From: Candidatus Woesebacteria bacterium GW2011_GWB1_39_12
Lineage (GTDB): Bacteria; Patescibacteriota; Microgenomatia; UBA8517
Direction of reading: 5' to 3'
Assembly (NCBI GenBank): GCA_000993405.1
Contig: LBWB01000009.1
Location: 77,848-141,847, forward strand
Length of the DNA stretch: 64,000 nucleotides
A program made the position numbers and the translations under genes. The number at the start of each line of letters is the position of its first letter. Within the stretch, counting starts at the first letter, position 1. The notes under the pieces were generated by a model, which saw nothing but the letters and a program-made list of their open reading frames with translations, was not told the DNA's origin and did not search any database. This document shows, one piece after another, positions 1-32,763 of the stretch.

Positions 1-223
1 ATATATCGTATCACCAAATCTTTTACCGAAAACTCGCGGAGGAATCCCGAATCCGAATTCTTCGACCCAGACTCCTGCACGCTTTGCCGCAAAAAAGTGT
101 CCAAGTTCATGAACGAGAACCAGAATGGATAAAACTGCAATGAAGGCGATTATGGAAAAAAGCATACACTAGAGATTAGCACAAAAAACTACAAATTTCT
201 ATTTAGATAATTTGAAAATTAAA

Positions 224-778
224 TTATATCTGAAGTAGTTCTTCTTCTTTGGTTTTTCCTGTCTTGTCTATTTTCTCAATATGCTCATCAGTTACTTCCT
301 GCAAATGTTTCTCCTGACCAAACTTCTCGTCCTCGCTTAACTCTTTTTTCTCAAAACTCTCTTTAATATCGTGCATTGCATCTCCTCTAATCTGGCGAAT
401 CATTATCCGACCATTTTCAAGTTTTGTATGAAGAAGTCTTACGTAATTTTCTCTGTCCTCGGAAGTTAAGGGAGGAAGGCTTATCCTAATAAATTGTCCG
501 TCAATCGAAGGGTTCAGGCCAACATTTGCCGCTAGAATTCCCTGTCTTATCTCACCGACTATTGATTTATCCCAAGGTTCAATGACAAGACTCTGGGTAT
601 CAGGCGCAGAAATCGTAGCAAGCTCCTGGATCTTCAGTTTTTGCTGGCCGCCGTAAACTCCTACGACTAAATCTTCAACTAGTGCCGGGGTTGCCCTGCC
701 TGTGCGAATTGAAGCAATATCGGAAGTCACTAAATCTAATACCTGTTGCATCCGTCTTCTAATGTCATCTTCGTTCAT
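224..778 (-). CDS. frr: ribosome recycling factor
   Basis: 184-aa ORF with typical RRF sequence (…DGQFIRISLPPLTSEDRENYVRL…); conserved neighbourhood with tsf and rpsB. Confidence 0.9.
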   Translation of the reverse strand: MNEDDIRRRMQQVLDLVTSDIASIRTGRATPALVEDLVVGVYGGQQKLKIQELATISAPDTQSLVIEPWDKSIVGEIRQGILAANVGLNPSIDGQFIRISLPPLTSEDRENYVRLLHTKLENGRIMIRQIRGDAMHDIKESFEKKELSEDEKFGQEKHLQEVTDEHIEKIDKTGKTKEEELLQI

Positions 779-822
779 CTGGAGTATTTTACTTTTCTCC
801 CGCCAGCAATATAGCTAAAGCT

Positions 823-1287
823 TTAGCTTTTTGCAGGCTGACCTAATTCTACACGAAAAACTCGGCCTATGCGACTATTCTCACCCGTTTTGGCAATAAC
901 TTCCTTAATCAGATCTTCGACCTTCTTTGAAGGATCTTTTATAAAATCTTGTTTTTCAAAATCTTTATCTCCCATTGAAGCAACTTGCATTGCAAGATCT
1001 TTACCTAACTCTTGAAATAATTCGTTTCTTGCCACAAAATCCGTCTCGCAAAAAAGTTCTACCACACCAACAACTTTCTGGTTATGGTGAGTATATGTTG
1101 CTAATATTCCCGCAGTAGTGGCACGCCCTGCGCGCTTTTCAACTTTTTCAAAACCTTCTTTCTGCAAAAGCATTTCTGCCTTCTTCATATCCCCCTTTAG
1201 TTCCTCCAAAACCTGCTTCGCCCTCATTACAGGAGCTCCGGTTTTATCTCGCAACTCTCTTATTTGACTAGCAGACACCTTAATCAT
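823..1287 (-). CDS. tsf: elongation factor Ts (short form)
   Basis: 154-aa ORF; N-terminal EF-Ts motif …ASQIRELRDKTGAPVMRAKQVLEE…; lies immediately downstream of rpsB as in most bacteria. Confidence 0.9.
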   Translation of the reverse strand: MIKVSASQIRELRDKTGAPVMRAKQVLEELKGDMKKAEMLLQKEGFEKVEKRAGRATTAGILATYTHHNQKVVGVVELFCETDFVARNELFQELGKDLAMQVASMGDKDFEKQDFIKDPSKKVEDLIKEVIAKTGENSRIGRVFRVELGQPAKS

Positions 1288-1411
1288 GACTTTGGATAAT
1301 TATCCAGATTTTTAAAAACTCTAAATCCTAAATTCTAATATCAAATTTTCCAAACATATTTTGTTTTGAATTTTTAATTTTGAATATTGTGATTTATTTA
1401 GGATTTAGATA
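1288..1411. repeat. AT-rich dyad-symmetric intergenic element built from AAATCCTAAAT / TTTTGAATTTT words
   Basis: ctctaaatcctaaattctaatatc … atttaggatttagatattaggatttgg are imperfect inverted repeats; related elements lie at 16353-16458 and 17542-17700. Confidence 0.5.
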
Positions 1412-2109
1412 TTAGGATTTGGTTTTATTCTTACTCTCACTCTTACTCTTACCACCCTTCCCATCCATTATCACATCTCTCATTAACTCCAACACATATT
1501 CCAGCGCCCTTGTTGCATCATCATTCATTGGAATTGGATAGTCAACTAGGGTCGGATCACAATTTGAGTCAACTAACGCAACTGTCTCAACTCCTACCAT
1601 AGCTGCTTCACTAACGGCCGTTTTCTCGCGTCTAATATCAATAATAATCAATATATCGGGAATCTTGCTCATCCCGACTATGCCGCCAAAAAAATTGGAA
1701 AGTCTCTGAATTTCTCGATCAATCAGAAGTCTTTCTTTTTTGGTTCTGTCATTAAAATCTCCCCTCTCCATCCCGCTTTTTAACTCTTGCAGCTTTTTTA
1801 CGGACTTAAGGATTTGGTCAAAATTAGTCAAAGTACCCCCAAGCCAGCGTTCATTAACGTAAAAAGAACCGGCTTCTTCGGCAATCTCTGCCAATTTATC
1901 CTTAACTTGTTTTTTTGTTCCTACAAAAAGAATTGTCTTACCCTCTTTTGATCTTCCAATTTCTCTTTAGTTTTGGTCAAATCAAAGATATGAACCCCAT
2001 CTTTTTCCCCATAAATATAAGGGGCCATCTTAGGATTCCAGCGTTTTACCTGATGTCCAAAATGTGCTCCAGCTGAAACTAATTCTTTGAGTGATACTTT
2101 AGTTGTCAT
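1412..2109 (-). CDS. rpsB: 30S ribosomal protein S2, interrupted by an apparent single-base frameshift near 1943-1947
   Basis: The N-terminal fragment (1921..2109, …[18 protein letters not shown]…) and the C-terminal fragment (1412..1920, …[12 protein letters not shown]…WLGGTLTNF…) are both clearly S2. They lie in different frames. Reading through, one extra G in the GGG run restores [10 protein letters not shown]. Confidence 0.85.
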
Positions 2110-2219
2110 ATGTCTCCTTTTACCGCCACCGATCAGAAGTGCTCAGGAGACCTGATCGATGTGTGAACTTCTTGGTATGTTAGCAAACAAGGATTCGAAA
2201 AGCAAATATGATTCCCCGC

Positions 2220-3041
2220 TTAATTCTTTGCAGCTTCAACCAAATTTTCCAAAAGACATGAAATCGTAACTGGTCCGACGCCACCTGGAACGGGAGAAAC
2301 AAATGAAGCCTTTTCGTAAGCCCCTTTTTCAATATCACCATACGGTGCGCCAACGTCAATAACTACTGCGCCTTTTTTGATGTCATCTCTGCCGATAACT
2401 CCTGGTGAGCCGGTTACACTGATTAATATATCCGCCATTTTTGTCTTTTTCTTCAAATTTCCCGATTTACGATCTAATCCTTCAACTTCATATCCCATCT
2501 TTTTCAAATTTTGATAAATCTTTTTTCCCTCAAATCCCATCGCCCCAACAACTACTACTTTGCAGGGTCGTACCCTGTTTTTAATATAAGGTTTTCCTAT
2601 GCGAAGAATCTCCAAAACCGCTTTAACTGTTGGAGTCAAATGCAAACTGTCTTCACGAAGACCATCAACGTCTTTTTCTTTCGCGATTGTGTTAAGTATT
2701 TCATCTCTATCTCCTTTCGAAAAATTATCCGGTAGCGGCAACTGCACCATTATCCCGTGTACATTGTCATCATTGTTAAATTTTACAATTATTTTTTGGA
2801 TTTCCTTTTTACTTATACTTAGACTTAAACTTATCACTTCTACCTTCGCCCCTATTCTCTCTGCCACTTTTCTCTTGAGATTCACATACAGGGTACTTGC
2901 AGGATTATCCCCCACCAAAATCGATACCAACCTAGGAGTCACCCCCCCCAATCTCTTACGACCGAAGGTCGAATTCATCTCTTCTTTTAACTTATTCTCT
3001 TTTTCCCAAGCAAACGCTTTTCCGTCAAAAATATGTGTCAT
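2220..3041 (-). CDS. folD: bifunctional methylenetetrahydrofolate dehydrogenase/methenyl-THF cyclohydrolase
   Basis: 273-aa ORF; FolD family pattern (…ILVGDNPASTLYVNLK…, …VVVGAMGFEGK…, …GGVGPVT…). Confidence 0.9.
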   Translation of the reverse strand: MTHIFDGKAFAWEKENKLKEEMNSTFGRKRLGGVTPRLVSILVGDNPASTLYVNLKRKVAERIGAKVEVISLSLSISKKEIQKIIVKFNNDDNVHGIMVQLPLPDNFSKGDRDEILNTIAKEKDVDGLREDSLHLTPTVKAVLEILRIGKPYIKNRVRPCKVVVVGAMGFEGKKIYQNLKKMGYEVEGLDRKSGNLKKKTKMADILISVTGSPGVIGRDDIKKGAVVIDVGAPYGDIEKGAYEKASFVSPVPGGVGPVTISCLLENLVEAAKN

Positions 3042-3091
3042 ATTATTAAGAATTTTAATTCATTTGATAAAAGTAAACAATTATTGAAGCC

Positions 3092-3307
3092 TTAAATTTT
3101 ACTTACTGTTCTATTGCATCGTTCTTGTAGACTTTCAGGGTTCGATTGCGATTGTTCTCTAAACTCATCGTAATATCTTCTTCTTGTTTTATTGCTGATA
3201 AATCCTCCTCTATTTACCCACATCTTTAAAAGACACCTACCAGTTTCATAATTAGGACAGTTAATTCCGGCACACCAATCGGGTCTTTCGGAACCACCTT
3301 TTCCCAT
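3092..3307 (-). CDS. small Cys-containing hypothetical protein
   Basis: 71-aa ORF between folD and glyA on the same strand; no recognisable family; could be spurious. Confidence 0.3.
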   Translation of the reverse strand: MGKGGSERPDWCAGINCPNYETGRCLLKMWVNRGGFISNKTRRRYYDEFREQSQSNPESLQERCNRTVSKI

Positions 3308-3336
3308 AATAATTTCTATTCCTAAACAATCGGAAA

Positions 3337-4551
3337 TTAAGTATTTCTTGCATCTTTATTCTGTGGAAGTTTATACGCTTTAACATAGTCGATTACTTTT
3401 AAAATCCATTCAGCAATTTGCTCCATTTCCTTTTCCTTCATACCTCTTGCGGTTATTGCCGGCGTCCCCAGTCGAATCCCCGATGGATAAAAGGGTGGCA
3501 TCGGATCATTCGGAACCGAGTTTCTGTTAACAACAACTCCGGCTATCTCGAGTGCTTCTGCTACAACATTTCCGGAAAGTCCAAGCGGCATAAGGTTTAC
3601 TACTACTAAGTGGCTCTCAGTTCCGTCACCATAAAGGCTAAGGCCGCCCATTTTAAGAGCAACTCCTAAGGCTATAGCGTTTTTTACAACCTGTTTTCCA
3701 TATTTTTTGAATTCGGGCATTTCAGCTTTTTCAAGAGCAACAGCAATTCCTGCCGTTGTATTATTATGTGGCCCGCCTTGAAGACCAGGGAAAACTGCTC
3801 TATCAATTTTTGATGGCAACACCGGGTCCTTTTTTAAGCCTTTATTTGTCACCCAAATAATCGCTCCTCTTGGCCCGCGAAGAGTTTTATGAGTCGTTGA
3901 AGTAATAACGTGTGCATAATTAATTGGGGAAGGATAAGCACCTGCAACAATTAGACCAATAACATGAGAAATATCCGCAACCAACCAGGCACCTATCGAA
4001 TCAGCAATTTCTGAAAACTTTTTCCAATCAAAAGCCAAGGGATAAGCCGTAGTTCCTATAAGCATCAATTTTGGCTTCTCAACTTTTGCAAACTTGGCGA
4101 TTTTTGAATAGTTCAATCTCCCATCTTCATCAACGCCAAACTGTACAGACCTAAAGTATTTTCCAGAAAATGTAATGTCGGGGTGACCGTGAGTAAGATG
4201 CCCTCCAACTTTTAACTGCATCCCCATTACGGTTTCGCCAGGGTTGACTAAAGCAAAATAAACCGCTGAATTGGCAGGAGAACCGGAATATGGCTGAACA
4301 TTTGCATGAGGAGTTCCAAAAAGTTTTTTTGCCCTTTCAACTGCAAGCCTCTCAATGTCATCAACTATTTTGTTACCCTGGTAATATCGTGCACCCGAAT
4401 AGCCCTCTGAATATTTATGCATGAGGATTGATCCAACCGCTTCCCGAACCTCGGGATAGGTATAATTCTCCGACGGAATCATCATAAGCGTCTCCGCCTG
4501 CCTTTTTTCCTCTTTCTTAATTAATTCCAATATTTTATCCATGTATTTCAA
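3337..4551 (-). CDS. glyA: serine hydroxymethyltransferase
   Basis: 404-aa ORF; SHMT hallmarks (…LKVGGHLTHGHP…, PLP-lysine region …TTHKTLRGPRG…). Confidence 0.95.
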   Translation of the reverse strand: MKYMDKILELIKKEEKRQAETLMMIPSENYTYPEVREAVGSILMHKYSEGYSGARYYQGNKIVDDIERLAVERAKKLFGTPHANVQPYSGSPANSAVYFALVNPGETVMGMQLKVGGHLTHGHPDITFSGKYFRSVQFGVDEDGRLNYSKIAKFAKVEKPKLMLIGTTAYPLAFDWKKFSEIADSIGAWLVADISHVIGLIVAGAYPSPINYAHVITSTTHKTLRGPRGAIIWVTNKGLKKDPVLPSKIDRAVFPGLQGGPHNNTTAGIAVALEKAEMPEFKKYGKQVVKNAIALGVALKMGGLSLYGDGTESHLVVVNLMPLGLSGNVVAEALEIAGVVVNRNSVPNDPMPPFYPSGIRLGTPAITARGMKEKEMEQIAEWILKVIDYVKAYKLPQNKDARNT

Positions 4552-4576
4552 TATTTTACTCTACTTTGATTATAAA

Positions 4577-5494
4577 CTATATCCTCTCGGCTCGTCTTGA
4601 AGAAGCCTTGGAATCAAAGAAGAACTCGCGGGCAGGCCAATACTTTTCCCACCCCGGGGCAAGAGTGGACCAAGAATGTCTTACTCCTATCTCAAGCTCA
4701 TAATTTGCTCTGTTTAATATCTCTCCAATTGTACCCGTTTCTCCTTCTCTAAAAACTCTTCCCAGAACTTGCTCATTGAAATCAACAAAACGTCCACATC
4801 TTTCTCCATTTCCTCTAATACCCAGCCTTGGACCTACAGCTTCCAAAATTTGTCTACTTACACCTTCTGCTGACAAATTCTTCCTATCAATTACAACCCA
4901 ATCCTGCTCAAGCTGAATATAATGTTTTAGAATACCAGCTCTTGTATTATAGGCTGATCTATCTACTTCAAAAGAGTCGTCCTTTAAACCCCTATCTATA
5001 TCTCGTCGTGCCCGCGAGACATCTGCTTCTTTAGTACTAACATCCAAAAAGAATTTAAAGGTAGGAGTCCCTTCAAACAACGAAAAAAATTGCTTATCTA
5101 TTTCTTTTAAAAATCTAAACTCTTGACTAGCAGTAGTTTTGAATCTTTTCACCTCATCAAGTATCGACAGTGCATTACTGGAGGGCCACCTTTCTATAAC
5201 AAAAGACCATCCCATTACAATTCCACTTTCAATAAACTGGGAAATTTCACCACGGTTGACCGCGAAAAGTTCTTGCAACGATCTTCCCTTAGGAATAAGC
5301 GTATATCCGTCAGGCCTCAGGATTGATTCTAGAATTCGACCTGTCGGAGTTTCATAACAGGGAAGTTTTAAAGAACACACATCCATCCCTCTACTTACTA
5401 CTTCCTTAATCAGTAACTCTGCGGTTGTAGATTTGCCCGAGCCGCCCAGACCTTCCAAAACAATTGCAAGCTGCTGATTAGTCTTAGCTGACAT
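4577..5494 (-). CDS. thymidylate kinase-like P-loop kinase with ~90-aa C-terminal extension
   Basis: 305 aa; N-terminal AIVLEGLGGSGKSTTAELL resembles the dTMP kinase P-loop (IEGxxGxGKST); the C-terminal third is unrecognised. Confidence 0.6.
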   Translation of the reverse strand: MSAKTNQQLAIVLEGLGGSGKSTTAELLIKEVVSRGMDVCSLKLPCYETPTGRILESILRPDGYTLIPKGRSLQELFAVNRGEISQFIESGIVMGWSFVIERWPSSNALSILDEVKRFKTTASQEFRFLKEIDKQFFSLFEGTPTFKFFLDVSTKEADVSRARRDIDRGLKDDSFEVDRSAYNTRAGILKHYIQLEQDWVVIDRKNLSAEGVSRQILEAVGPRLGIRGNGERCGRFVDFNEQVLGRVFREGETGTIGEILNRANYELEIGVRHSWSTLAPGWEKYWPAREFFFDSKASSRRAERI

Positions 5495-5788
5495 CTCTGG
5501 CTAAAAATAGACTATTATTAGAAAAACCGCAAGAGTGCAAAATCAAGAAGTGTCAATTGGAATATAATTCTCTGACGGAATCATCATAAGGGTATCCCTC
5601 TGTCTCGTCCCCTCTTTCTTAATTAGCTCGAATATCTTATCTTCTTTTTTCATGGCTACTGATTAAAGCTTGGCCAAGCTGAGCTTGGTAAGCGTCTCTA
5701 TTTGTCTTTTCTCCTCCTTTTTAATTAATTCAAAGATCTTGTCCATGAGAGATAAAATTTGTTAAGTTAGATTAGCATTCTATTTTGT

Positions 5789-7504
5789 CTACATCAATGA
5801 CGGCAAAGGTTGTCTAACAAAATCTTCCGGTTGATTTACACAACTAATGTGTCCATTTTTGCAACATACTGGTTCATATTGCTCCTCACCCGCAACAAAG
5901 GTTTTGTCATCGTAATCAGCTATTTCCCCATACTGGTTATACCTTCGCGTTCCTTGTGCCTCGTTATCACAATACTTACAGGTAGTACCCAACTCTACCT
6001 CATGCCAATCTGGACGAACAGTTGCCTCTCTTATTAATTTATGAGCAAAATTAAATGGTTCTTCTTGGAATGTGTAGTCTATAAAATCGCAAACCACATG
6101 GAAACCCATCTGTCTTAACTCTTCAACTGAACTAACTGCCTCATCTGCGTCACTCTCATAAAACAACATTGTCTCATCAATAAATAAGTAAGTCTTTCTC
6201 GGATCAATATTATCAGACCCAATCCTTCTCTTCACATCCTCTAAAATCTCTGAAAGTTTATTACTCCATATCGTATTAGCCGGTATCTCCACACCGTCTC
6301 GATTTTTTAATTTAGTTTCATACTCGGGTCCGTATCTTAATGCTGCGGCAGGTTGAAAGGCTAAAATATTTTCATCTCCCACCATTTCGGAAATGTAAGT
6401 AAGCACACTTGTTTTCCCAGCAAACATACTTTTACTATGAGCAATAACTACTTGTGGTCCCATGTTTGGTGAAAAAATTCTACTTACTATATAATCAGCT
6501 ACTTCCTTTGGATCTTGCTTCAAATATTCTCCCAATATCTCAAGTTGATCTCTTATTGAAAACAAAGTTGCATACTTCAAATCTGGATTCCGATAAAATT
6601 CAGGAGGATCAACTACAATTGGCAAAACCTTTATACCTTCTTCTCTCAATGGTTCTATTGCTTCCCTCTCTACCCGAACCATCACCTCTAGATCCTCCAG
6701 TGTTATTTTTCTTTCCATGTCTCGAACTTTTGGATTCCCTTCTATCCTCTCCTGAAGTCCCTGATATAATCTCTCAACAGAAGTAGGAAGCATAAGGACC
6801 AATAAATCGGGTTTTGATATCAATGGTTTTAAAAGCTCAACTGTTTTTTTATAAACTTTATATTCTTCATCTGTAACTTGGCCTCCCTCCACCCTTGCTC
6901 TCATGAATATAAAATTATCCGACCAAACACTTGTGTCTCTCGCCCATCTCCCGTCATAAAGTTTTCCTCTTAACCCGGTAAAAATACTGTCTAAGCCAAA
7001 ACCTAGTTCTGTTCTTAACCAATAATCGTTGTCTGAATAAGCCAGGCTTAAAAAAGGATTCTCTGATGAATGAAAACGTTCGCTTTCCATTTTCGCTTTA
7101 ATTTCTGGCGAAACAAACTCTGTAAGAGTGGATTTACCAACTCCAACAACTCCTGCAGCTTCGAGTACGAATTCCTGTTTACCTTCCCCCATCATAATTT
7201 CACAAAACTCCGGGAAATTATCAAAAGGAGGCAAAGAATATTTTATAGAAAAAAGATTAAACGTCTTTTCGAATAACCCAATTTCATCCGGGGAAAATTG
7301 TGTATGAAAGTCTGTAAGCTGTCCTCTCACCAATTCTGTAAACTGTCTTTTCTGACCTTGATCTGCGTTTGAAAGAACCTCTTCTGACAAATTTAAAGTC
7401 TCGATAAAATTTGAAAATTCGCCCAAAAATACTTCTCTCGGAGCAAATTCTTTGGAAGCATAACCTTCTCTTTCAGGGGCAGCAGTTTTTCCCTGTGAAG
7501 TCAT
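5789..7504 (-). CDS. fusion protein: deoxynucleoside kinase-like domain (N) plus thymidine kinase TK1-type domain (C)
   Basis: 571 aa; N-terminal P-loop AAGVVGVGKSTLTEF is dNK/dCK-like. The C-terminal half has the TK P-loop VIAHSKSMFAGKTSV and a Cys4 zinc-ribbon lasso (…CKYC…CCKNGHISC…) typical of TK1. Confidence 0.7.
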   Translation of the reverse strand: MTSQGKTAAPEREGYASKEFAPREVFLGEFSNFIETLNLSEEVLSNADQGQKRQFTELVRGQLTDFHTQFSPDEIGLFEKTFNLFSIKYSLPPFDNFPEFCEIMMGEGKQEFVLEAAGVVGVGKSTLTEFVSPEIKAKMESERFHSSENPFLSLAYSDNDYWLRTELGFGLDSIFTGLRGKLYDGRWARDTSVWSDNFIFMRARVEGGQVTDEEYKVYKKTVELLKPLISKPDLLVLMLPTSVERLYQGLQERIEGNPKVRDMERKITLEDLEVMVRVEREAIEPLREEGIKVLPIVVDPPEFYRNPDLKYATLFSIRDQLEILGEYLKQDPKEVADYIVSRIFSPNMGPQVVIAHSKSMFAGKTSVLTYISEMVGDENILAFQPAAALRYGPEYETKLKNRDGVEIPANTIWSNKLSEILEDVKRRIGSDNIDPRKTYLFIDETMLFYESDADEAVSSVEELRQMGFHVVCDFIDYTFQEEPFNFAHKLIREATVRPDWHEVELGTTCKYCDNEAQGTRRYNQYGEIADYDDKTFVAGEEQYEPVCCKNGHISCVNQPEDFVRQPLPSLM

Positions 7505-7595
7505 TTTTCAATAATTAATAAACTCAAGAAATCTTACTTATCATAAATTATAAAATTAACTTGATTTATTCAATACACGCAGATAATATACAACC

Positions 7596-8432
7596 ATGAA
7601 AGAATACCTCGACCTAGTTGAAGATGTTATGACAAACGGAAAACCAAGGCAAGGACCAAAACCAGAAGGAACAATTGCTGTATTTGGAAGACAAGTAAGA
7701 TATAATTTAGCTGATGGTTTCCCCTTAATAACTACTCGCGACCTAAGTAAATCTTGGTTAAAAGTCATAGTTCCAGAACTTCTATGGATAATATCTGGTA
7801 GCACAAATGCAAACGACCTCCACAAGTATGGCAGTAATTTATGGGATAAATGGGCAAAGGCAGCCGAGGAAAAAGTCGGTTATCAAAATGGGGAGCTGGG
7901 TCCAATTTACGGCCATCAGCTTCGTAATTTTGGGGGACAAGTTGATCAACTTACACAAGTAATCGGAATGTTACAGCGAGAACCAGAAACACGCAGAGCA
8001 ATAATTAGTCTTTGGAACTTGAGTGATGTCGAGACCCCAGAAGGCAAACACACAGTAGATGTTGCGCCATGCATTGCAATGTTTCACTTTGCTCAAATGG
8101 GTGGAAAATTAGATCTTATAATGACCCAGCGAAGTGCAGATATCCCAATTGGTGTACCAAATGACGTTGCCGAGTGGGCGCTTTTTCAGATGTTAATTGC
8201 GAAAGAGGTTAATTTACCACCAGGAGAATTCATTCATAACCTAGATGACGCACACATCTATGTTGACCAAATCCCTGCTATGAAAGAGTTGCTTACAAGA
8301 GAACCCAAAGTGCGTCCAGATGTAACCATTGCAAACTCACTAACGGGAACTATTTATGACCATGTAGTGGAAGACTTTCAGCTACTCAATTACAACCCCC
8401 ATCCGCCAATTAAGATTCCCGTTGCTTTGTAG
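7596..8432 (+). CDS. thyA: thymidylate synthase
   Basis: 278 aa; ThyA family (…MKEYLDLV…, …PCIAMFHF…, …DAHIY…). Confidence 0.9.
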   Translation: MKEYLDLVEDVMTNGKPRQGPKPEGTIAVFGRQVRYNLADGFPLITTRDLSKSWLKVIVPELLWIISGSTNANDLHKYGSNLWDKWAKAAEEKVGYQNGELGPIYGHQLRNFGGQVDQLTQVIGMLQREPETRRAIISLWNLSDVETPEGKHTVDVAPCIAMFHFAQMGGKLDLIMTQRSADIPIGVPNDVAEWALFQMLIAKEVNLPPGEFIHNLDDAHIYVDQIPAMKELLTREPKVRPDVTIANSLTGTIYDHVVEDFQLLNYNPHPPIKIPVAL

Positions 8433-9252
8433 AGCTAACTCTTTTTAACTCAACTCCATTTTCTACCAAGAGTGGGACTGCCTCAGACAGTCCATATGAG
8501 TCTCTTTCAAAAATCACCGTTTTTATGCCCGCTCCTATTATTTCCATGGCACAGGGCCTACAAGGAAACTTAGTCGCATAAATAGTTGACCCTTCTAAAG
8601 AAATGCCATCTTTAGATGCATGGGATATTCCTACCCTTTCCGCATGCAAAGAATCACAAAATAACATCCTTTCACCAGGATTCAAATGTAATTCTCTGAA
8701 ATCTAATGGTATCTCTCTACAATTAGAGTTGTTAAAACTTGTAGATGCGCTTTCCAGTAAAACACCATCACCCCTAACAAAGACGCAGCCTGCAGGATCC
8801 AACCAGCAATTACTTGATTCGGCCGCCCTTCTAGCCTTCGCTATCATTTCCACATCAAATGGGTCGGTCGATTCATTAATTGGAACTCCTGTGTCAATTT
8901 CCTCTGCAATCGCTCTCTCTGGTTTACTCCATCTTACTTGCCCCTCTATTTTCACAAGAGCCCAGTTATTTCCCACCTCTTGGTTTGCGGATTCGTAGTC
9001 CAGAGGCATTACTCCTTTTAACCGTTCTGTTACTGAAGCCAAAATCTGGGCTTTTGCCCAGCCCCTAGTACCTTTTTGGTATTGATAATCTGGCATTACC
9101 AATATCGCATCAATACCTACTTCAGTAATCATTTCCTTAAATTCACGGAGATTAACACAGCTTATATTTCTTTCATCGCATACAAGTAACATCAGTCGAG
9201 CTTTTTCTGATACATTTAGACTCTCTGGTGATAAGACATCAAGCTCTCTCAT
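8410..9252 (-). CDS. dCMP deaminase domain protein with ~130-aa unknown N-terminal domain
   Basis: The C-terminal half has the cytidine/dCMP deaminase zinc motifs HAE…PCRPCA. The track ORF starts at 9357. An internal ATG at 9250-9252 shares the TG of the upstream HIT gene stop in an ATGA overlap, so I take 9252 as the start. It is convergent with thyA. Confidence 0.7.
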   Translation of the reverse strand: MRELDVLSPESLNVSEKARLMLLVCDERNISCVNLREFKEMITEVGIDAILVMPDYQYQKGTRGWAKAQILASVTERLKGVMPLDYESANQEVGNNWALVKIEGQVRWSKPERAIAEEIDTGVPINESTDPFDVEMIAKARRAAESSNCWLDPAGCVFVRGDGVLLESASTSFNNSNCREIPLDFRELHLNPGERMLFCDSLHAERVGISHASKDGISLEGSTIYATKFPCRPCAMEIIGAGIKTVIFERDSYGLSEAVPLLVENGVELKRVSSTKQRES

Positions 9253-9737
9253 TTTTCTAGTGCGCCTCTCAATCTCTCTGCTAAATCTAAAGGGGTAATA
9301 CTGATTTCCTGAAAATGCCAAGTATTTAATCCCTCGATATATGGCATTATATTCCAATGTAAGTGGCTTACGGTTTTTCCAGCTATAGGCCCTTGACGTA
9401 AAATAATCCAGTAATTTTCAATTTCAAGCTCTCTTTGAAGAAGCCCAATCCCAGTTTTAACTAACTCATGTCCAGCTAAAACATCTTCATTAGTTAAATC
9501 ATGATAGTTTTCAATATGTCTCTCGGGAAGTACTAACACTTGACCATCAATGTAGGGGAAAATATTTACAGTCAAAATCCACTGGTCTTGTTTGGTAACA
9601 ACGTACTTGTCTCTTAAGTCACAAAAAACACACTTGCCAACATTTTCAGCAATATTGTGATATTTCCCCTCTAATCTCGCGTTGAGCTGATTTTTAGTCC
9701 TAAATGGATCATCTCGATCTACCATAAAATTAGGCAC
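9249..9737 (-). CDS. HIT-family (histidine triad) nucleotide hydrolase/transferase
   Basis: 162 aa; histidine triad SHLHWNIMP near the C-terminus. Confidence 0.8.
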   Translation of the reverse strand: MPNFMVDRDDPFRTKNQLNARLEGKYHNIAENVGKCVFCDLRDKYVVTKQDQWILTVNIFPYIDGQVLVLPERHIENYHDLTNEDVLAGHELVKTGIGLLQRELEIENYWIILRQGPIAGKTVSHLHWNIMPYIEGLNTWHFQEISITPLDLAERLRGALEK

Positions 9738-10395
9738 TTTTATTTCTTTCTGACATGAACCTTTGGAAATCGGAAATTATTTGTTGTGTATTTTGTTCAG
9801 ATATCTTATGAATTATATCTGTGGTTGAAAGAAAAGGATCCTGTCTTGGGGTACGGAAAACTTGTCCTCCTATTTCGGTCATTGCTATAACTTCCGCTTT
9901 GGTTTCAATATCGCCCTCCCAACTTCCTTCAACACACAGGTAGGTATCAGGTTTTAAGATTCTTATTACCTCGGCTCCATTATCTTCAGGAAAAGGAGTA
10001 ATATAATCCACAAACTGTATAAAACTTAGCATTTCCGCTCTCTCACTCTCTCTCAAAACAGGTCGATTTGGTCCCTTCAGTCTCTTTACAGATTCGTCAG
10101 TGTTGAGTCCTACAAAAAGCACGTTTCCCAATGATCTTGCCAACTCCAAATACCTGGCATGTCCAATATGGACCATATCAAAAACACCAGTTGTAAATGA
10201 TAGTTTGTATCCTCTTCTTCTCAAGAAATCGCCTACTGAAGCAAGTTCCCCTCTAGGTATTAATTTATTTTGTAATAATGGGTGTGTTTCCTTTGTTGAA
10301 TTTCCTTCAAGAAAATGAATACTTACCTCATTTCCTCCTATCTTAACCTTTAATCCAAGCGGTCTTTCCATGCTTACAAAGATAGTTATTATCAA
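9730..10395 (-). CDS. nucleotidyltransferase of the cytidylyltransferase superfamily (HxGH motif; RfaE domain II/TagD-like)
   Basis: 221 aa; …GVFDMVHIGHARYLELAR…VGLNTDESV… matches the (H/T)xGH cytidylyltransferase fold signature. Confidence 0.6.
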   Translation of the reverse strand: MIITIFVSMERPLGLKVKIGGNEVSIHFLEGNSTKETHPLLQNKLIPRGELASVGDFLRRRGYKLSFTTGVFDMVHIGHARYLELARSLGNVLFVGLNTDESVKRLKGPNRPVLRESERAEMLSFIQFVDYITPFPEDNGAEVIRILKPDTYLCVEGSWEGDIETKAEVIAMTEIGGQVFRTPRQDPFLSTTDIIHKISEQNTQQIISDFQRFMSERNKSA

Positions 10396-10474
10396 AAAAA
10401 AGGAGTTGTTACAAGCTCCAAAATTTCATATACAGTTCTGAACAAATTTTTATAACTTAGTACTCGCTAACCAA

Positions 10475-11389
10475 TCATACCCTAGTCGAAGCAAGATAAT
10501 CTTTCCAAAACTCTTTGATCATAATTTCTGTCCAAGTTTCAATTTTGGGTTCTTTTCCCCTATTCCAATCACCCTGTCTTTTTTCCATCTCTTCTTCCAC
10601 TTTACTAAATGGAACCCACCAAGCTTTTGCAATCTCACTTGTAGGAAATGTTAAATGACTGACTACTCGGGAGTTAATCTCTAAAACTGCCGCAATGCCT
10701 GTGTGCACCCAACCAACTTGTACTGGTAATAACGGGTCTTCAATCCTTTTATCGTAAAATGCGCCCAATAGTTTTAAATTTTCAACTCCGTCTCTGGTTA
10801 TCCCTATTTCTTCTTCAACCTCACTGAAAAAACCACGATTCAAACCTAAAACTGTCCCAACTTCATCTTGAACGGCGGGTAGTAAACCTTTAAGAAAGAT
10901 AAGTTCTTCACGGCTTATTGATATATCTTCTTGAGTTTTATGTCCGCCAAAACCAACTGTAAAACGACCCTGAAGTCGTGGATCACCAATAAACTTTCTA
11001 CCTTTTTTAGCTTCGGGACTTGAACGTTGATACCAAAGAAGATTTTCTTGACAGGTAACCATGGTATAAATAATTATTTGCTGTCTAGTAGGATCATTTT
11101 CTAAACCATTCTCGCCATATCTTCTCGCAACATCACCGTATTTAAATACAACTTTCAAAACTTCTGGTACATTTCGAGTTACTAAAACATCCGGAGAAAA
11201 AAAGGAAGGCAAAAACTCTGTTCTGTCATTGAATAAAACTTCGGTTGGCACAAAAAGCGATGTCTTATCAAGAGTTGGTAAAGCTTCTTTTTCAGACTTG
11301 ATAGAAACCGGAATTGGAAGCATAAACGTCTTTTTGCCTTGTTTCGCTTCTGCGCTTCTTTCTGTCACCATTTTCTTTTTTTTACCCAT
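10475..11389 (-). CDS. hypothetical protein (weak Nudix-like segment)
   Basis: 304 aa; only a loose GX5EX7RExxEE-like stretch (…GGHKTQEDISISREEL…); function unknown. Confidence 0.4.
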   Translation of the reverse strand: MGKKKKMVTERSAEAKQGKKTFMLPIPVSIKSEKEALPTLDKTSLFVPTEVLFNDRTEFLPSFFSPDVLVTRNVPEVLKVVFKYGDVARRYGENGLENDPTRQQIIIYTMVTCQENLLWYQRSSPEAKKGRKFIGDPRLQGRFTVGFGGHKTQEDISISREELIFLKGLLPAVQDEVGTVLGLNRGFFSEVEEEIGITRDGVENLKLLGAFYDKRIEDPLLPVQVGWVHTGIAAVLEINSRVVSHLTFPTSEIAKAWWVPFSKVEEEMEKRQGDWNRGKEPKIETWTEIMIKEFWKDYLASTRV

Positions 11390-11613
11390 TAAAAACCTCC
11401 TTGTTAAAGGAGGGCAGTAATTTGTCTATTTTACAACAAATAAAGTTTTTTAGAAGTATTATTATTTACTTTTAAGGGACAGCTCCTACGAGGTGTATAT
11501 AGTTTTAATTAATTAATTTCCCTTTCTGAACCTGTAGCGTTTTCTCTCTCCGCTCTGGGTTTTCGCCGAGTCTAACTCGGCTTACGCCAGCTGGCCATTT
11601 GCGTTCTGGGGTC

Positions 11614-12099
11614 TTAACAAATTTCATTAATCACCTCAGTGGAATATGATTTACCGTCGATCCAATCTCTAATTGCTGGAATATTATATTCAGGTTTATA
11701 TAATTTATTTTCTTCTATCAGCTTTTCTAATTCCGAAGTACTGAAATAATTAAAACCGGTTATTTCAAACCCGTCTGGCGTTACTTCACCTTCAACAATT
11801 TCTCCTCTGAAAACAAACCCTAAACCGGTTGCATCATCTCCCCGATCAGTTGGATAAATCCTAATTAGATCTAAAAGGTTTATTTCAACTCCGATTTCTT
11901 CCTTGGCTTCCCTTTTCGCAGTCATCATAGGATCTTCGTGTGGTTTCATTTTGCCGGAAGGGGGTGCCCATGCAAACTTTTCTTCCTCTATTTTCTTTTT
12001 TAAAAGGAGCAGTCTCCCTTCTCTATCCCCGATAAAAACACCGCTTGAAACACTTACTGGCAGTTTTTCTCTCGAGGATATCCTTTCTTTAGACATCAA
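11614..12099 (-). CDS. NUDIX hydrolase
   Basis: 161 aa; good Nudix box GKMKPHEDPMMTAKREAKEEIGVEI. Confidence 0.8.
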   Translation of the reverse strand: MMSKERISSREKLPVSVSSGVFIGDREGRLLLLKKKIEEEKFAWAPPSGKMKPHEDPMMTAKREAKEEIGVEINLLDLIRIYPTDRGDDATGLGFVFRGEIVEGEVTPDGFEITGFNYFSTSELEKLIEENKLYKPEYNIPAIRDWIDGKSYSTEVINEIC

Positions 12100-12460
12100 G
12101 AGTAAAATGCTTACATTCTTCTGAACCAGGATCAGTAAACATCTCTCCTAAATTTTTCCCTAATCCTTTAGCGATTCTCTGCGCAAGTTCGATGTCCATG
12201 GCGGCCATTGGACTCGAACCATCTCTCAACATATATAAGTAATAACGCATGGTATCAAAAACCTTGGCAGCTTTTTTAATTCCACCCAAATCACCAATTC
12301 CGCTTTCCAAATTTCCACGAAAATTTTCAAGTAATCGCTGAACTTCCTCTTCAGAGACCTCGTTACCAGTTGCGTCCTTGTATCTTCTCGCTTGCTCCTG
12401 TATAACCATTCCTAAACTCGGATTGGGTTTTTTAATTTCTTCTGGAGACATACTTGTCAC
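12089..12460 (-). CDS. hypothetical protein
   Basis: 123-aa ORF in a same-strand array; no family recognised. Confidence 0.4.
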   Translation of the reverse strand: MTSMSPEEIKKPNPSLGMVIQEQARRYKDATGNEVSEEEVQRLLENFRGNLESGIGDLGGIKKAAKVFDTMRYYLYMLRDGSSPMAAMDIELAQRIAKGLGKNLGEMFTDPGSEECKHFTLDV

Positions 12461-12500
12461 CTTTAAGGGTTCCTTTAAGGGTCGTGCCCTATAAGGTACG

Positions 12501-12755
12501 CTAATCGTACGGTGGCATGTGATCGATTGAGTTTTCTCTAAAATAATTATCTATTTTTTCATCTCGCATTTTTAAAGCCAGATTTATTTCATCATCAGTT
12601 AAATCCTTCCGAGCAGCTGCTAAATTTTCATTCTCTAACCATACCTCAACTGAAAAATGGTTTGTATATAAAATTCTCGCAAGTTTTTCAGCCAGACCCA
12701 CTCGAACCCCCGCCTTTTCTCCGGTTAGCAAATCGATTCTTTCTGACATATTCAT
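12501..12755 (-). CDS. hypothetical small protein
   Basis: 84-aa ORF; no family recognised. Confidence 0.35.
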   Translation of the reverse strand: MNMSERIDLLTGEKAGVRVGLAEKLARILYTNHFSVEVWLENENLAAARKDLTDDEINLALKMRDEKIDNYFRENSIDHMPPYD

Positions 12756-12829
12756 GCAAATATAACTTTATAAAAATAATAAAGCTTGACTTAATCCGTT
12801 GGGCATCTTTGACTTGTTTTTGACATTTT

Positions 12830-13927
12830 TTGACAACCTTGTTCCATTCTGGTATAAACCTAATCCTAAATAGGATTTTTGACATGAATCAGGCTTATTT
12901 TGAAACTTTGTCCAAGGATTATTTTGGTAACCTTTACCAAAAAGTTTGCAGTGCATTAACTAAAGGTGAAAATGTTTGCATTTCCGTGATACCTGGTTTT
13001 GGAGAAAAAACAATTTTTAATTTCCTGAATTTTAATTTCAAAAACGACAAACTGTTTAACGAAATTTATATTTATGATCCCGAATTGGAAAATGAAAGTA
13101 TTATCGACTATACCAAAAAATTGGAATCCCATAAAACTTCTAAAACTAAACTTCTCATTATCAGATTCTTTGAACAAATTGAAAAAAAGAGAGAGACTTT
13201 GGAAAAACTTGATAACATCAGAAGGAAAAATCCAAAGAGTCTCACCTATTTAGCCGTTTCCAATCAAGAAGCTTTTTTAAATCCCTCCTCGCACCAGGCA
13301 TTAACAACGGTGTTCTTTTCTGAACTAATTTATTTTTCTCCTTTTGATTTTGCTCACACAGAAAAAATGGTTGAGTCGTTGGCGTCTTATTATGGCTGGA
13401 AAATTGAGCCTTCCAGCTACAAAGAAATTTATAATTTGTCTGGTGGAATCCCTAGAATTATAAAATACTTAACTAAAGAGCTTTATGAATCTCGAATCCC
13501 GCTAGCCAATAAAGACAAGTTAACACTAATTCCCCAAATCGGCTTTCAACTTAGACTTATGACAAGAATTTTGATTACCTATGATCAAAAACAAATTCAA
13601 TTGATGGGATTAATCGATGAAAAATACCGATTGAAATCAGGACTTTTAAAATACTTCTTAAAAAATTTCAGAAGCGATATGATTAGCAACCTCTACCCAC
13701 AGCTAGGTGACACCGAAACAAAGATTCTGTCTTTTTTCAGCGAGAAGGAAAGTAAAATTGTAACTTTAGATAATTTAGCCCACTTAATGAAGATGTCTGA
13801 TGATGATTTTTCCTTATGGGCAATTTATAAGTTAATATCGCGCCTTAAAGTGAAAGTAAAAAATAACTTTAATATAAAAAATCTCAAAGGCCGAGGGTAT
13901 ATTCTTAGTAAATCAGTGAATCAATAA
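12830..13927 (+). CDS. hypothetical protein (possible degenerate P-loop GFGEKT)
   Basis: 365-aa ORF; unknown family. Confidence 0.45.
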   Translation: MTTLFHSGINLILNRIFDMNQAYFETLSKDYFGNLYQKVCSALTKGENVCISVIPGFGEKTIFNFLNFNFKNDKLFNEIYIYDPELENESIIDYTKKLESHKTSKTKLLIIRFFEQIEKKRETLEKLDNIRRKNPKSLTYLAVSNQEAFLNPSSHQALTTVFFSELIYFSPFDFAHTEKMVESLASYYGWKIEPSSYKEIYNLSGGIPRIIKYLTKELYESRIPLANKDKLTLIPQIGFQLRLMTRILITYDQKQIQLMGLIDEKYRLKSGLLKYFLKNFRSDMISNLYPQLGDTETKILSFFSEKESKIVTLDNLAHLMKMSDDDFSLWAIYKLISRLKVKVKNNFNIKNLKGRGYILSKSVNQ

Positions 13928-13928
13928 G

Positions 13929-14294
13929 TCATGAGTTAAATTTTGTAGATATTGATGAGAAGATCTTCACAAATTCTTTTGCTTCACGAAGTAATTCAGT
14001 TAATTCGTTTGTAAAATTTGGATTAATTTCAATTAATAATTCTAACCAGTACAAGGTTTCTTTAGACTCTTTCTTGCAAATTCTTATTTTGTGAACAAAA
14101 TCTTTGCCAGACTCCGCTTCACAAGCCTCTCTATAATTCGCACCTATAGAAGTACCCGAACGGATAGTCTGTTTTATTAATATTTCATTTGGAATTGTTT
14201 TGGGAAATCTACTTAATACTTCGATTAAATTTAATGAGAAATCTTTTGTTCTTTTTTGCATCTTCTCTCTAAATTCTGTATTTTTATATACCAT
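13929..14294 (-). CDS. four-helix-bundle protein (TIGR02436-like, formerly called 23S rRNA intervening-sequence protein)
   Basis: 121 aa; characteristic …IRSGTSIGANYREA…KDF…KIRICKKESKETLYWLELL…. Confidence 0.75.
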   Translation of the reverse strand: MVYKNTEFREKMQKRTKDFSLNLIEVLSRFPKTIPNEILIKQTIRSGTSIGANYREACEAESGKDFVHKIRICKKESKETLYWLELLIEINPNFTNELTELLREAKEFVKIFSSISTKFNS

Positions 14295-23044: not shown

Positions 23045-23605
23045 ATGGTTAGAGAAATTTTAAATACAAAAGATCGCCGCTTAAGAGTGGTTTCAAAACC
23101 GGCGAGCAAAGTTGATAAAAAAATTAAAGAGCTTATCAAAGATTTAAAAGAAACTCTTCTTGTCCAAAAAGATCCCGAGGGAGTCGGTCTTGCGGCGCCG
23201 CAAATCGGAAAAAATGTCAGGGTCTTTGTTATTATGCCGGATAGTAAAATCAAGGTTATTATTAATCCTGAAGTCGTTAAAACGGAAACGGAAATCAAAA
23301 AGGAAGAAAAGTCATCTAAAGGACGACCTCGTCCAACAGATGGGGCAGCCGGCAGAAAAATTATGGAGGGCTGTCTGTCGCTTCCTAACTATTACGGGCC
23401 GATTAAACGAAGCGCTGAAATTACCATAAAATATCTTAATGAGGAAGGCGTTACCAGAACTGAAACTTTTTTTGGGATTGAAGCCCAAATTATTCAGCAC
23501 GAAATAGACCATTTAAACGGCATACTTTTCGTTGACCGCCTCCTGGAGCAAAAAAAACCGCTCTATGAGTATATTGATGGAGAGTGGGAAGAAGTCGAAC
23601 TTTAG
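23045..23605 (+). CDS. def: peptide deformylase
   Basis: 186 aa; motifs GVGLAAPQIG, EGCLS, QHEIDHLNG; carries a ~25-aa basic insertion. Confidence 0.9.
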   Translation: MVREILNTKDRRLRVVSKPASKVDKKIKELIKDLKETLLVQKDPEGVGLAAPQIGKNVRVFVIMPDSKIKVIINPEVVKTETEIKKEEKSSKGRPRPTDGAAGRKIMEGCLSLPNYYGPIKRSAEITIKYLNEEGVTRTETFFGIEAQIIQHEIDHLNGILFVDRLLEQKKPLYEYIDGEWEEVEL

Positions 23606-23669
23606 TTCCATCTCTTCGAGCCTGAGCCTCAGAGCCGAAGGCCTGAGCGCAGTCGAAGGATGAATTATT

Positions 23670-24674
23670 ATGAAGATTATATTTTTCGGTACCCCAGATT
23701 ATGTAGTCCCCGTCTTAGAAAGCTTACATAGGACTTTCAAGCCTAAAACGGGCGAGTCACCAATTGCTGCAGTAGTTACTCAAGCTCCGAAGCCGACCGG
23801 AAGAAAACAGGAATTATCCTACTCGCCTGTTGATACCTGGGCATTCAAGAAAAAGGTTCCTAAGTTCTTCGATCCAGAAGACATATTAAAAAATAAAATT
23901 CAGGCAGATTTAGGCGTTTTAGCATCATATGGCACAATTATTCCAGCCGAAGTTATTAATCATTTCCCTCACGGCATTTTAAACATCCATCCGTCTCTTT
24001 TACCAAAGTGGCGCGGTTCGTCTCCCATTCAAGCCATAATTATCTCCGAAGATCAGGCGGGTGCAACAATTATTAAAATTGATGAAAAACTGGATCATGG
24101 TCCGATAATTTCCCAATTTAAAGACGAGGTTCTACCAGAAGACACAACCGAAACTTTACGTAGACGCTTATTTGAAAGGTCTGCAGAAGTTTTGACTACC
24201 CTCATCCCTCCCTATTTGTCAGGTAAAATTATCCCCCGCGAACAGGATCATAAGTTAACAACATTTACTCGTGAAACCAAAAAAGAAGACGCATTTATTC
24301 CACCGCAGATGTTGTGGTCAGTGGTCAGTGGTCAGTGGTCAGAAAAACAAAAGGAGTGGAAAATTAGTTTTATCGGGGATCTCACTGTTCACTGTACACC
24401 AATCACTGTCCACAATTTCATTCGCGCCATGCAACCATGGCCAACAGCCTGGACTTTCGTCCGGCTAGGACAAAGAGCTAAGGACAAAGAGCAAATAAGA
24501 CTGAAAATTCTCAAAGCCCATCTCGAATCAATCCAAGCTACTGGATCCAAGCTACCAGCTACTAAACTAGTGCCTAGTGCCCAGTGCCTAGTGCCTGACC
24601 TCATCCAACTTGAAGGCAAATCCCCCGTTTCCTGGAAGCAATTCCTCGAAGGCTACCCTGAAGCAAAATTCTAG
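23670..24674 (+). CDS. fmt: methionyl-tRNA formyltransferase
   Basis: 334 aa; formyltransferase N-domain (…LNIHPSLLPKWRGSSPIQ…); C-terminal domain riddled with in-frame DNA word repeats. Confidence 0.9.
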   Translation: MKIIFFGTPDYVVPVLESLHRTFKPKTGESPIAAVVTQAPKPTGRKQELSYSPVDTWAFKKKVPKFFDPEDILKNKIQADLGVLASYGTIIPAEVINHFPHGILNIHPSLLPKWRGSSPIQAIIISEDQAGATIIKIDEKLDHGPIISQFKDEVLPEDTTETLRRRLFERSAEVLTTLIPPYLSGKIIPREQDHKLTTFTRETKKEDAFIPPQMLWSVVSGQWSEKQKEWKISFIGDLTVHCTPITVHNFIRAMQPWPTAWTFVRLGQRAKDKEQIRLKILKAHLESIQATGSKLPATKLVPSAQCLVPDLIQLEGKSPVSWKQFLEGYPEAKF

Positions 24675-30026: not shown

Positions 30027-30072
30027 TGTCTATACATTATAATGGTTCAGTCCTTCGGCTTCACTCAGGATT

Positions 30073-32754: not shown

Positions 32755-32763
32755 TTTTTCTCT

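Follow-up and report, generated by a model that had tools for sequence, protein, structure and literature searches.

A thyA-like gene with the residue pattern of cytosine-specific enzymes in a conserved cassette of a Woesebacteria chromosome, and a possible dCMP-first route to thymidylate

The 64-kb window analysed here, a chromosomal stretch of Candidatus Woesebacteria bacterium GW2011_GWB1_39_12, carries at 2220-12099 a cluster of genes for FolD, GlyA, a thymidylate-kinase-like protein, a deoxynucleoside kinase-thymidine kinase fusion (dNK::TK1), a thymidylate synthase (TS) family enzyme, a deaminase, a HIT protein, a cytidylyltransferase and two Nudix proteins (Table 1). Judged by its residues, the gene that the original prediction took for an ordinary thyA does not encode a canonical thymidylate synthase acting on deoxyuridine monophosphate (dUMP), and its pattern is that of the cytosine-specific TS homologues. 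To judge from gene order, it forms with the cytidylyltransferase, HIT and long deaminase genes a four-gene cassette which is conserved in relatives, one locus excepted, and this cassette stands at the place in the genome where sister lineages carry ThyX. We tentatively read the cluster as two modules of a Microgenomates-type chromosome, one for salvage and one-carbon supply and one a 'cytosine-first' cassette, in which deoxycytidine monophosphate (dCMP) would be methylated and then deaminated to thymidine monophosphate (dTMP). We hold this reading as a real possibility rather than as a settled matter.

The case rests first on the active site. The window enzyme scored 239 bits against TIGR03284 (cut-off 108) and 252 bits against NF002497 (cut-off 327), and the HMMER alignment to E. 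coli TS was free of gaps across QRSADIPIGVPNDVAEWAL / QRSCDVFLGLPFNIASYAL. Here Asp190 takes the place of E. coli N177, Ile160 that of H147 and Pro21/Lys22 that of R21/T22, and the residues C146, E58, Y94, R126/127, R166, S167, D169 and Y209 (E. coli numbering, used below unless stated) are retained. Each of the 11 gene copies in the clade to which this enzyme belongs (9 distinct loci, namely the window plus 8 relatives) shows the same departures, with Asp at 177, I/V/T at 147 and a residue other than Arg at 21, at pairwise identities as low as 39%. Cys146, Glu58, Tyr94, Arg127, Arg166, Ser167, Asp169 and Tyr209 are kept throughout the clade, and Arg126 in all members except that of locus L012 (labels of this kind denote loci of relatives). 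In comparison, R21, which binds phosphate, H147 and N177, which selects uracil, were present in 27/27 canonical TS, which comprised E. coli TS, 15 loci of the genome collection and 11 IMG/VR loci (bacterial metagenome-assembled genomes, one archaeon and viral contigs). The Asp177 proteins were monophyletic in a neighbour-joining tree.

Position 177 is cited in PMC8670742 as dictating the pyrimidine specificity of TS, the N177D change giving a dCMP methylase, and positions 177 and 147 were the top two discriminators between the TS of cytosine-modified and unmodified phage contigs (PMC8670742). The engineered N177D (E. coli) and N229D (L. casei) enzymes resemble the window enzyme in placing Asp for Asn on a TS scaffold, and one change is enough to make them dCMP methylases, as cited in PMC8670742. 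The natural clade differs from them in that further changes are fixed at 21/22 and 147, and it also has three short insertions. Arg126' and Ser167 mark deoxyribose substrates, and MilA has Lys and Ala instead (PMC5175136). CMP as a MilA-like substrate was rejected because these determinants are kept in the window enzyme, as R133/R134 and S180 in its own numbering.

A dCMP hydroxymethylase is marked by Asp/Glu at Cys-3, Ser at Tyr-2 and a missing C-terminal tail, the part that closes off the site for hydride transfer (PMC6400193). The window enzyme reads V-A-P-C (Val at Cys-3) and G-P-I-Y (Pro at Tyr-2) and has the complete tail PPIKIPVAL. Since the hydroxymethylase signature is absent and the TS tail is full, the most fitting reading is a dCMP C5-methyltransferase with release of dihydrofolate (DHF), and the enzyme is probably of this kind. 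T4 gp42, the hydroxymethylase that works with the gp56 dCTPase, the Cd deaminase and the gp1 kinase, shares its three deviations (Lys near 21, non-His147 and Asp177; the T4 residues at the 21 region, 147 and 177 are Lys/Thr/Asp in our alignment). It uses dCMP and methylene-tetrahydrofolate (methylene-THF), and the same substrates are predicted for the window enzyme. Apart from the signature and the tail, the window enzyme differs from gp42 in being ~40% identical to E. coli ThyA and in falling outside the gp42 branch.

The behaviour of dihydrofolate reductase (DHFR) genes in relatives fits the release of DHF. A folA gene lies directly upstream of the clade TS in five of them (L008, L009, L010, L012 and L031), and L031 repeats the architecture of the window with DHFR between TS and dNK::TK (TS <- DHFR, then dNK::TK ->). 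The original prediction noted that no DHFR stands next to thyA and advised looking for folA or thyX. This was borne out within the 64-kb window, in which Pfam found neither DHFR (PF00186) nor ThyX (PF02511), in open reading frames (ORFs) of at least 120 aa without opposite-strand overlap (all except 63229-63996) together with those of at least 100 aa in 1-14000, and tblastn of the 64 kb with three relatives' DHFRs and three ThyXs gave no match. The absence matters more than the prediction held, because five relatives carry folA where the window has a spacer of 91 bp. In that spacer no DHFR remnant was detected by tblastn with the relatives' DHFRs. A DHFR hidden in the deaminase N-domain or in unannotated ORFs was also considered, and was rejected for want of sequence or fold support.

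The second line of evidence is gene order. The same block lies between topA and rpsB-tsf-frr in many relatives, at protein identities of 33-60%, and the clustering is therefore inherited and selected rather than due to chance. Contigs encoding homologues of the fusion kinase have a common backbone, Wzy/TPR - mreB - PBP - dprA - topA - variable slot - dNK::TK - (tmk) - glyA-folD or FTCD - rpsB - tsf - frr. The variable slot is filled in one of two ways. It may hold a long ThyX, accompanied by a plain dCMP deaminase (L004), by two dCTP deaminases (L005) or by no deaminase gene (L001), or it holds cytidylyltransferase, HIT and long deaminase genes and then a convergent TS gene, as in the window, L008/L011, L009/L034, L010, L012, L029, L031 and L035-L038. 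Wherever the contig of a long-deaminase locus continues past the 3' end of the deaminase gene, a TS-family gene adjoins it, and this is a convergent Asp177 TS at all such loci except L006. The HIT and cytidylyltransferase genes, loose neighbours in the original prediction, instead belong to this four-gene unit.

The ThyX proteins of the sister lineages are encoded directly upstream of dNK::TK (L001 8160-10004, L004 8354-9988 and L005 8386-9999). They have 537-614 aa and are thus more than twice the usual ThyX length of ~220-250 aa. In a 213-aa protein from the Logan assembly (P0068), the N-terminal 143 residues of an Asp177-clade TS are followed by the C-terminal part of a long deaminase. The protein probably reflects a deletion or a chimera of the assembly, but here again the TS and deaminase genes lie side by side.

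The third element is the deaminase. It was described as a dCMP-deaminase fusion, and the dCMP-deaminase domain (PF00383) is indeed present, but its partner is an orphan N-domain of ~110 aa and not a second known enzyme. This extra domain sets the protein apart from the single-domain dCMP deaminases of ~140-190 aa, and the 280-aa architecture occurs in at least 33 proteins. In the catalytic half, H203/E205 of the HAE motif and C231/C234 of the PCxxC motif are invariant. The AlphaFold2 (AF2) model has two domains (predicted local distance difference test, pLDDT, 90), the C-terminal half of which superposes on dCMP deaminases, with Foldseek matches to 2hvw, 4p9c, 1vq2 and 2w4l at E = 7e-9 to 2e-7. 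The N-domain is a small beta-alpha-beta unit (pLDDT 94 when modelled alone) and has Cys32, Gly61, Gly64 and Lys67 as invariant residues, in a Gly-rich loop at the N-terminal end of a helix. Searches of Pfam, PDB and BFVD gave no significant match to it, and its fold matches all had E values of 0.04 or more. A nucleotide-binding regulatory role may be suggested for it. The deaminase gene overlaps the TS gene convergently by 23 nt at its 3' end, and its start overlaps the HIT stop in an ATGA, as was predicted (ATG 9252-9250, TGA 9251-9249). The same start was used in the independent gene call of a nearly identical contig (L007), and the HIT/deaminase junction also overlaps in relatives, by 4 nt in L008, 8 nt in L006, 8 nt in L010 and 14 nt in L009.

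The remaining two cassette proteins are the HIT protein and the cytidylyltransferase. The HIT protein, with its likely start at the ATG at 9725, has the motif H-L-H-W-N, and in 10/10 orthologues the third histidine is replaced by Asn or Gln. This HxHx(N/Q) motif departs from the Hint/Fhit triad H-x-H-x-H-x-x, and we take it to be the pattern of GalT or phosphorylase-type HIT proteins, which are transferases or phosphorylases rather than hydrolases. The cytidylyltransferase (likely start ATG at 10371) found its best PDB matches in ethanolamine-phosphate, choline-phosphate and glycerol-3-phosphate cytidylyltransferases. Its counterpart in L006 (L006 6356-7141) bears an N-terminal ATP-cone, the dATP/ATP sensor of ribonucleotide reductases. 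From the features of the cytidylyltransferase, HIT, deaminase and TS proteins, it is plausible that all four handle cytosine nucleotides. As a speculation, one net reaction might lead from CTP or dCTP to CDP or CMP-level nucleotides by way of a CDP-X intermediate.

On these grounds a route can be proposed. The dNK domain would phosphorylate deoxynucleosides of the dC/dA type to give dCMP, or dCMP would come from other sources, and GlyA and FolD would supply 5,10-methylene-THF. The Asp190 enzyme, to judge from its residues, its context and phage precedent, would convert dCMP and methylene-THF to 5-methyl-dCMP and DHF, and the long deaminase would then convert 5-methyl-dCMP to dTMP, or act at the triphosphate level as the phage deaminase mSCD-B5 does. 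The kinase-like protein may carry dTMP to dTDP, the TK1 domain would take dT/dU and thereby add thymidine salvage, and the cytidylyltransferase and the HxHxN HIT protein, as obligate partners, may feed or gate the cytosine nucleotides. Because methylation would precede deamination, thymidylate would be formed without a dUMP intermediate.

Several points weigh against this proposal. The scheme leaves the cytidylyltransferase, the HIT protein and the N-domain of the deaminase without a step of their own, and in phages mSCD-B5 acts on triphosphates, not on monophosphates (bioRxiv 10.1101/2024.12.05.627091). The window and L036-L038 have no adjacent DHFR gene although DHF is the expected product. 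In L006, the cytidylyltransferase-HIT-long-deaminase trio is paired with a very divergent TS-like fusion which appears to have Asn at 177 in a low-confidence alignment, so the trio is not strictly tied to an Asp177 TS. As to the L006 protein itself (504 aa, L006 8431-9945), it fuses an MtrA-like domain, which matches structures of tetrahydromethanopterin methyltransferase subunit A at E = 1e-18, to the TS-like part and a pterin-binding DUF4346, and may be a corrinoid- or pterin-dependent TS variant.

The reading that survives best beside the cytosine-first one is the canonical order, in which the long deaminase converts dCMP to dUMP and the TS methylates dUMP to dTMP despite Asp177. We think it unlikely. 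In its favour, the window protein scores as a thymidylate synthase in Pfam, TIGR03284 (239 vs 108) and PHROGs, its catalytic residues and C-terminal tail are all TS-like, the folA-thyA linkage of the relatives is typical of ordinary TS operons, and L006 shows the deaminase trio with a TS-like protein that seemingly has Asn177. The likeness to the Gram-positive route of dCMP deaminase (ComEB), ThyA and DHFR extends to all three enzyme families and to the folA-TS adjacency in relatives. However, Asp177, non-His147 and non-Arg21 are fixed jointly in 11/11 clade copies and in 0/27 canonical TS, the NF002497 score is under its cut-off (252 vs 327), and PMC8670742, PMC6400193 and PMC5175136 link Asp177 to cytosine substrates by mutagenesis and phage data. 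The window differs from the Gram-positive route in the changes of Asn177 to Asp and His147 to Ile, the loss of Arg21, the added deaminase domain and the absence of folA, and in the prediction methylation comes before deamination instead of after it.

The precedent for methylation before deamination comes from phages. In phage metagenomes, Asp177 TS genes typically adjoin genes of the dCMP-deaminase family, and 5-methyl-dCMP was made by 5/7 such TS; the adjoining deaminases are selective for 5-methylcytosine (5mC) and have been proposed as a source of thymine nucleotides from the 5mC pool (bioRxiv 10.1101/2024.12.05.627091). The window is like the Xp12-type pathway (10.1101/2024.12.05.627091; PMC8670742) in that an Asp177 TS adjoins a PF00383 deaminase, and the same chemistry is predicted. 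It differs in many other respects. The locus is cellular and sits in a conserved housekeeping position where sister lineages have ThyX, genes for a cytidylyltransferase and an HxHxN HIT protein always go with it and DHFR often does, and there is no sign of modified DNA. No phage TS in the collections is more than 42% identical to the window TS, and among 11 IMG/VR TS homologues retrieved with the sequence patterns of the clade none had Asp177. The deaminase adds an N-domain that was not found in phages: the long form is absent from IMG/VR, GenBank phages match the catalytic half only, and PHROGs adds nothing. A recent phage origin was rejected, since the TS is so distant from those of phages and the long deaminase does not occur in IMG/VR.

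A second alternative is modification of DNA at the nucleotide level, in which 5-methyl-dCMP (or 5-hydroxymethyl-dCMP) would be phosphorylated and incorporated, with 5mC for much or all of the C as in phage Xp12. Some of the pool would be turned into thymine nucleotides by the deaminase, and management of the dCTP/5mdCTP pools would fall to the Nudix proteins and the divergent kinase. The gene set does look like phage kits, with an Asp177 TS, a deaminase in cis, candidate nucleotide pyrophosphatases and a divergent gene resembling dNMP kinases, and the kinase gene is an orphan insertion flanked by glyA relics. But the cassette replaces ThyX in a conserved slot, which argues for thymidylate supply and not for an add-on modification, the Nudix and kinase genes are not kept together with the cassette in relatives, a conserved dedicated dCTPase is lacking, and we know of no cellular organism that replaces C wholesale with a modified base. 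We therefore consider this explanation quite unlikely. In its specific form, in which 5-methyl-dCTP made from the product of the Asp177 TS is incorporated so that 5mC stands for most or all of the chromosomal C and thymine comes from deaminating the 5mC pool, it seems to us very doubtful.

The fusion kinase bears on the salvage module. That PF01712 and PF00265 lie in one protein of 571 aa was confirmed, and all 34 database hits were homologous, 31 with both domains, two (362 and 364 aa) with TK only and one with dNK only. The fusion was found in this database search solely in Patescibacteria-type sequences. PDB matches were TK1 enzymes and the dAK/dCK 8j5e. The best PDB match of the dNK domain is a dA/dC kinase, and this domain may be a source of dCMP. 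It conserves P-loop K124, E142 and the LID arginines R253 and R261, and the arginine of the 'ERS' motif is replaced by Thr (D-T-S) in the window protein and in most aligned family members. The TK1 domain has K364/T365, the I-D-E motif (D443/E444) and the zinc cysteines C509, C512, C547 and C555, and its first P-loop Gly is replaced. About 115 residues at the N-terminus are lineage-specific. Compared with the separate dAK/dGK/dCK and TK1-type thymidine kinases of Lactobacillus and Bacillus, both catalytic domains remain recognisable with their P-loops, LID arginines, TK1 Glu and zinc cysteines, but in the window they form one chain with the extra N-terminal region and D-T-S for 'ERS'. Our literature search found no paper on this fusion, which as a compact all-in-one deoxynucleoside kinase may be of biotechnological interest.

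Patescibacteria are generally seen as dependent on scavenged nucleotides. A clean-up role, in which the long deaminase turns 5-methyl-dC nucleotides scavenged from host DNA via dNK into thymidylate and the TS-like protein has another or minor role with cytosine nucleotides, would suit this habit and the fact that dNK::TK adjoins the cassette in the window and L031 and the long-deaminase trio in L006, with a separate dNK-like gene in L035, but it is improbable, as it does not account for the strict pairing of the deaminase with the Asp177 TS or for the linkage to DHFR, GlyA and FolD, and dNK::TK is missing from many cassette loci.

Pfam and NCBIfam placed all of the genes named in the original prediction where it had put them, and its main observation stands that one-carbon supply (GlyA, FolD), deoxynucleoside kinases, a TS family gene, a deaminase and a dTMP-kinase-like gene are gathered in one block. 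Their positions are given in Table 1.

Table 1. Features of the nucleotide gene cluster and its flank, with positions in the 64-kb window.
Feature	Position	Strand	Basis
frr, short tsf, rpsB	224-1894		Pfam/gene scan
folD, bifunctional methylene-THF dehydrogenase / methenyl-THF cyclohydrolase	2220-3041	-	PF00763 + PF02882
glyA, serine hydroxymethyltransferase (SHMT), source of 5,10-methylene-THF	3337-4551	-	PF00464, 467 bits
Divergent thymidylate-kinase-like P-loop kinase, 305 aa	4577-5494	-	PF02223, 39 bits (cut-off 27)
Two tandem relics of the glyA 5' end	5746-5663 and 5653-5543	-	tblastn with relatives' SHMT N-termini, 72-85% identity
dNK::TK fusion, 571 aa	5789-7504	-	PF01712 at residues 117-275, PF00265 at 359-549
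dNK::TK, TK1-type domain	5849-6442	-	Pfam
dNK::TK, dNK domain	6680-7156	-	Pfam
dNK::TK, N-terminal region	7160-7504	-	Lineage-specific
Divergent spacer dNK::TK / TS, 91 bp; position of folA in relatives	7505-7595		Comparison with L031 and others
TS-family enzyme	7596-8432	+	PF00303, 262 bits
GAC codon for Asp190 (E. coli TS Asn177)	8163-8165	+	Alignment to E. coli TS
Long dCMP-deaminase-family protein, 280 aa	8410-9252	-	PF00383 at C-terminal end
Long deaminase, zinc deaminase domain	8428-8877	-	AF2, Pfam
Long deaminase, Rossmann-like orphan N-domain	8917-9252	-	AF2
ATGA overlap, HIT stop / deaminase start	9249-9252	-	Sequence
HIT-family protein, motif H-L-H-W-N	9249-9737	-	PF01230; PDB alignment to Fhit and HinT
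CTP-type cytidylyltransferase	9730-10395	-	PF01467
TM1382-like divergent Nudix protein, 304 aa	10475-11389	-	Family profile vs PDB 3e57
Nudix hydrolase, 161 aa	11614-12099	-	PF00293

The one-carbon genes of the window are replaced in some relatives. FolD is 49% identical to that of the syntenic relative L004. Next to rpsB in L005, L006, L009 and L031, FTCD_N/FTCD (formiminotransferase) and FTCD_C (cyclodeaminase) genes stand in for glyA-folD; the module's one-carbon source is interchangeable. Moreover, folD and glyA need not serve thymidylate alone, because methionyl-tRNA formyltransferase is a second user of the FolD product (10-formyl-THF); its gene fmt lies with def at 23045-24674 (+), 20 kb away. 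The likely true start of glyA is the ATG at 4542, according to the L007 gene call.

The kinase-like protein is divergent. It is far under the cut-offs of the NCBIfam dTMP-kinase equivalogs (48 vs 193 and 35 vs 83), is 24-37% identical to the tmk products of relatives in local alignments of 70-200 residues, and has a C-terminal extension of ~90 aa that is unmatched. The motifs GSGKST and ERW can be made out by eye, and a homologue search returned solely a truncated copy of the protein itself. The spacer 5543-5746 between its gene and dNK::TK is filled by the two glyA relics of 27 and 36 codons, the DNA of which is by eye ~80% identical to the real glyA start at 4542. The relics and the orphan kinase gene together suggest that cassettes were replaced repeatedly, through recombination at the boundary of glyA.

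The two Nudix genes were predicted just beyond the cytidylyltransferase gene, and this is their place in the window, but they lie outside the block conserved in relatives. The 304-aa ORF has no Pfam match itself. The profile of its homologues matches 3e57 (TM1382 of T. maritima) at E = 2e-28, 14 of 30 family members match PF00293, and E190, E193 and E194 of the Nudix box are invariant.

The wider setting is that of a chromosome of the Patescibacteria (candidate phyla radiation), of Microgenomates/Woesebacteria type and ~39% G+C, with the housekeeping genes topA, dprA, PBP, mreB, def-fmt, ribosomal protein genes and 4 tRNAs. Homologues of the window proteins with a named source came from Patescibacteria, Woesebacteria or Microgenomates. 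The ENA contig L007 is 99.98% identical to the window over 8.5 kb, with independent gene calls that agree. At the 3' end of glyA it has 81 extra nt (L007 8524-8606, against window 3338/3339), giving 433 instead of 404 aa, and past this point the identity falls from 99.98% to 96.3%. The divergence marks a breakpoint of strain-level recombination or else a chimeric join in the assembly. A promoter and terminator scan was uninformative because it returned fewer sites in the window than in shuffled sequence.

Between topA and the cassette lie a gene for a 23S rRNA intervening-sequence protein (PF05635, 13929-14294, -) and a 365-aa ORF with a weak Trans_reg_C match (12830-13927, +). This stretch has a G+C content of 34.5%, the second lowest in the window, and in relatives the cassette starts within 32 nt of topA (L009) or after two small ORFs (L010). 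The two genes look like an insertion relative to the relatives. Farther away, a run of eight large genes at 26317-40683 (-) is a cellulosome-like surface scaffold of a candidate-phyla bacterium. Six of its proteins have dockerin domains, one of these also with cohesin, another has cohesin only, and the product of the first gene (26317-27528) has only a carboxypeptidase-regulatory-like domain; one protein of the run also has a PQQ beta-propeller. The G+C content is 42-46% in this run and ~34-40% over 1-18 kb and 44-64 kb. At 57205-60202 (-), three genes, encoding a weak class-I W/Y tRNA-synthetase-like protein and two ORFs without Pfam match, break up the rplK-rplA / rplJ-rplL ribosomal protein cluster.

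To our knowledge, all cellular thymidylate synthesis starts from dUMP, by ThyA or ThyX. Cytosine-first chemistry is already known from phages and engineered TS; our literature search found no paper on the Asp177 TS clade or the four-gene cassette in Patescibacteria or any cellular organism. The cassette, a resident and vertically conserved unit that takes the place of ThyX at a housekeeping locus, appears to start from dCMP and to deaminate afterwards. If the 5mC-for-C explanation were the true one, this would be the first cellular organism with wholesale substitution of a non-canonical base. If instead the cytosine-first reading is right, the recycling of DHF would be a puzzle where folA is missing, the orphan domain and the conserved cytidylyltransferase-HIT pair would acquire a testable function, and the window would offer a natural dCMP methylase on a TS scaffold and possibly a 5mC-preferring deaminase, enzyme kinds that are used for methylome sequencing. 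The automated 'thyA' annotation in genomes of the candidate phyla would need rereading. These bacteria would then hold a third cellular solution for making thymidylate, one that avoids dUMP and hence dUTP and whose only examples so far come from phages which rewrite their DNA.

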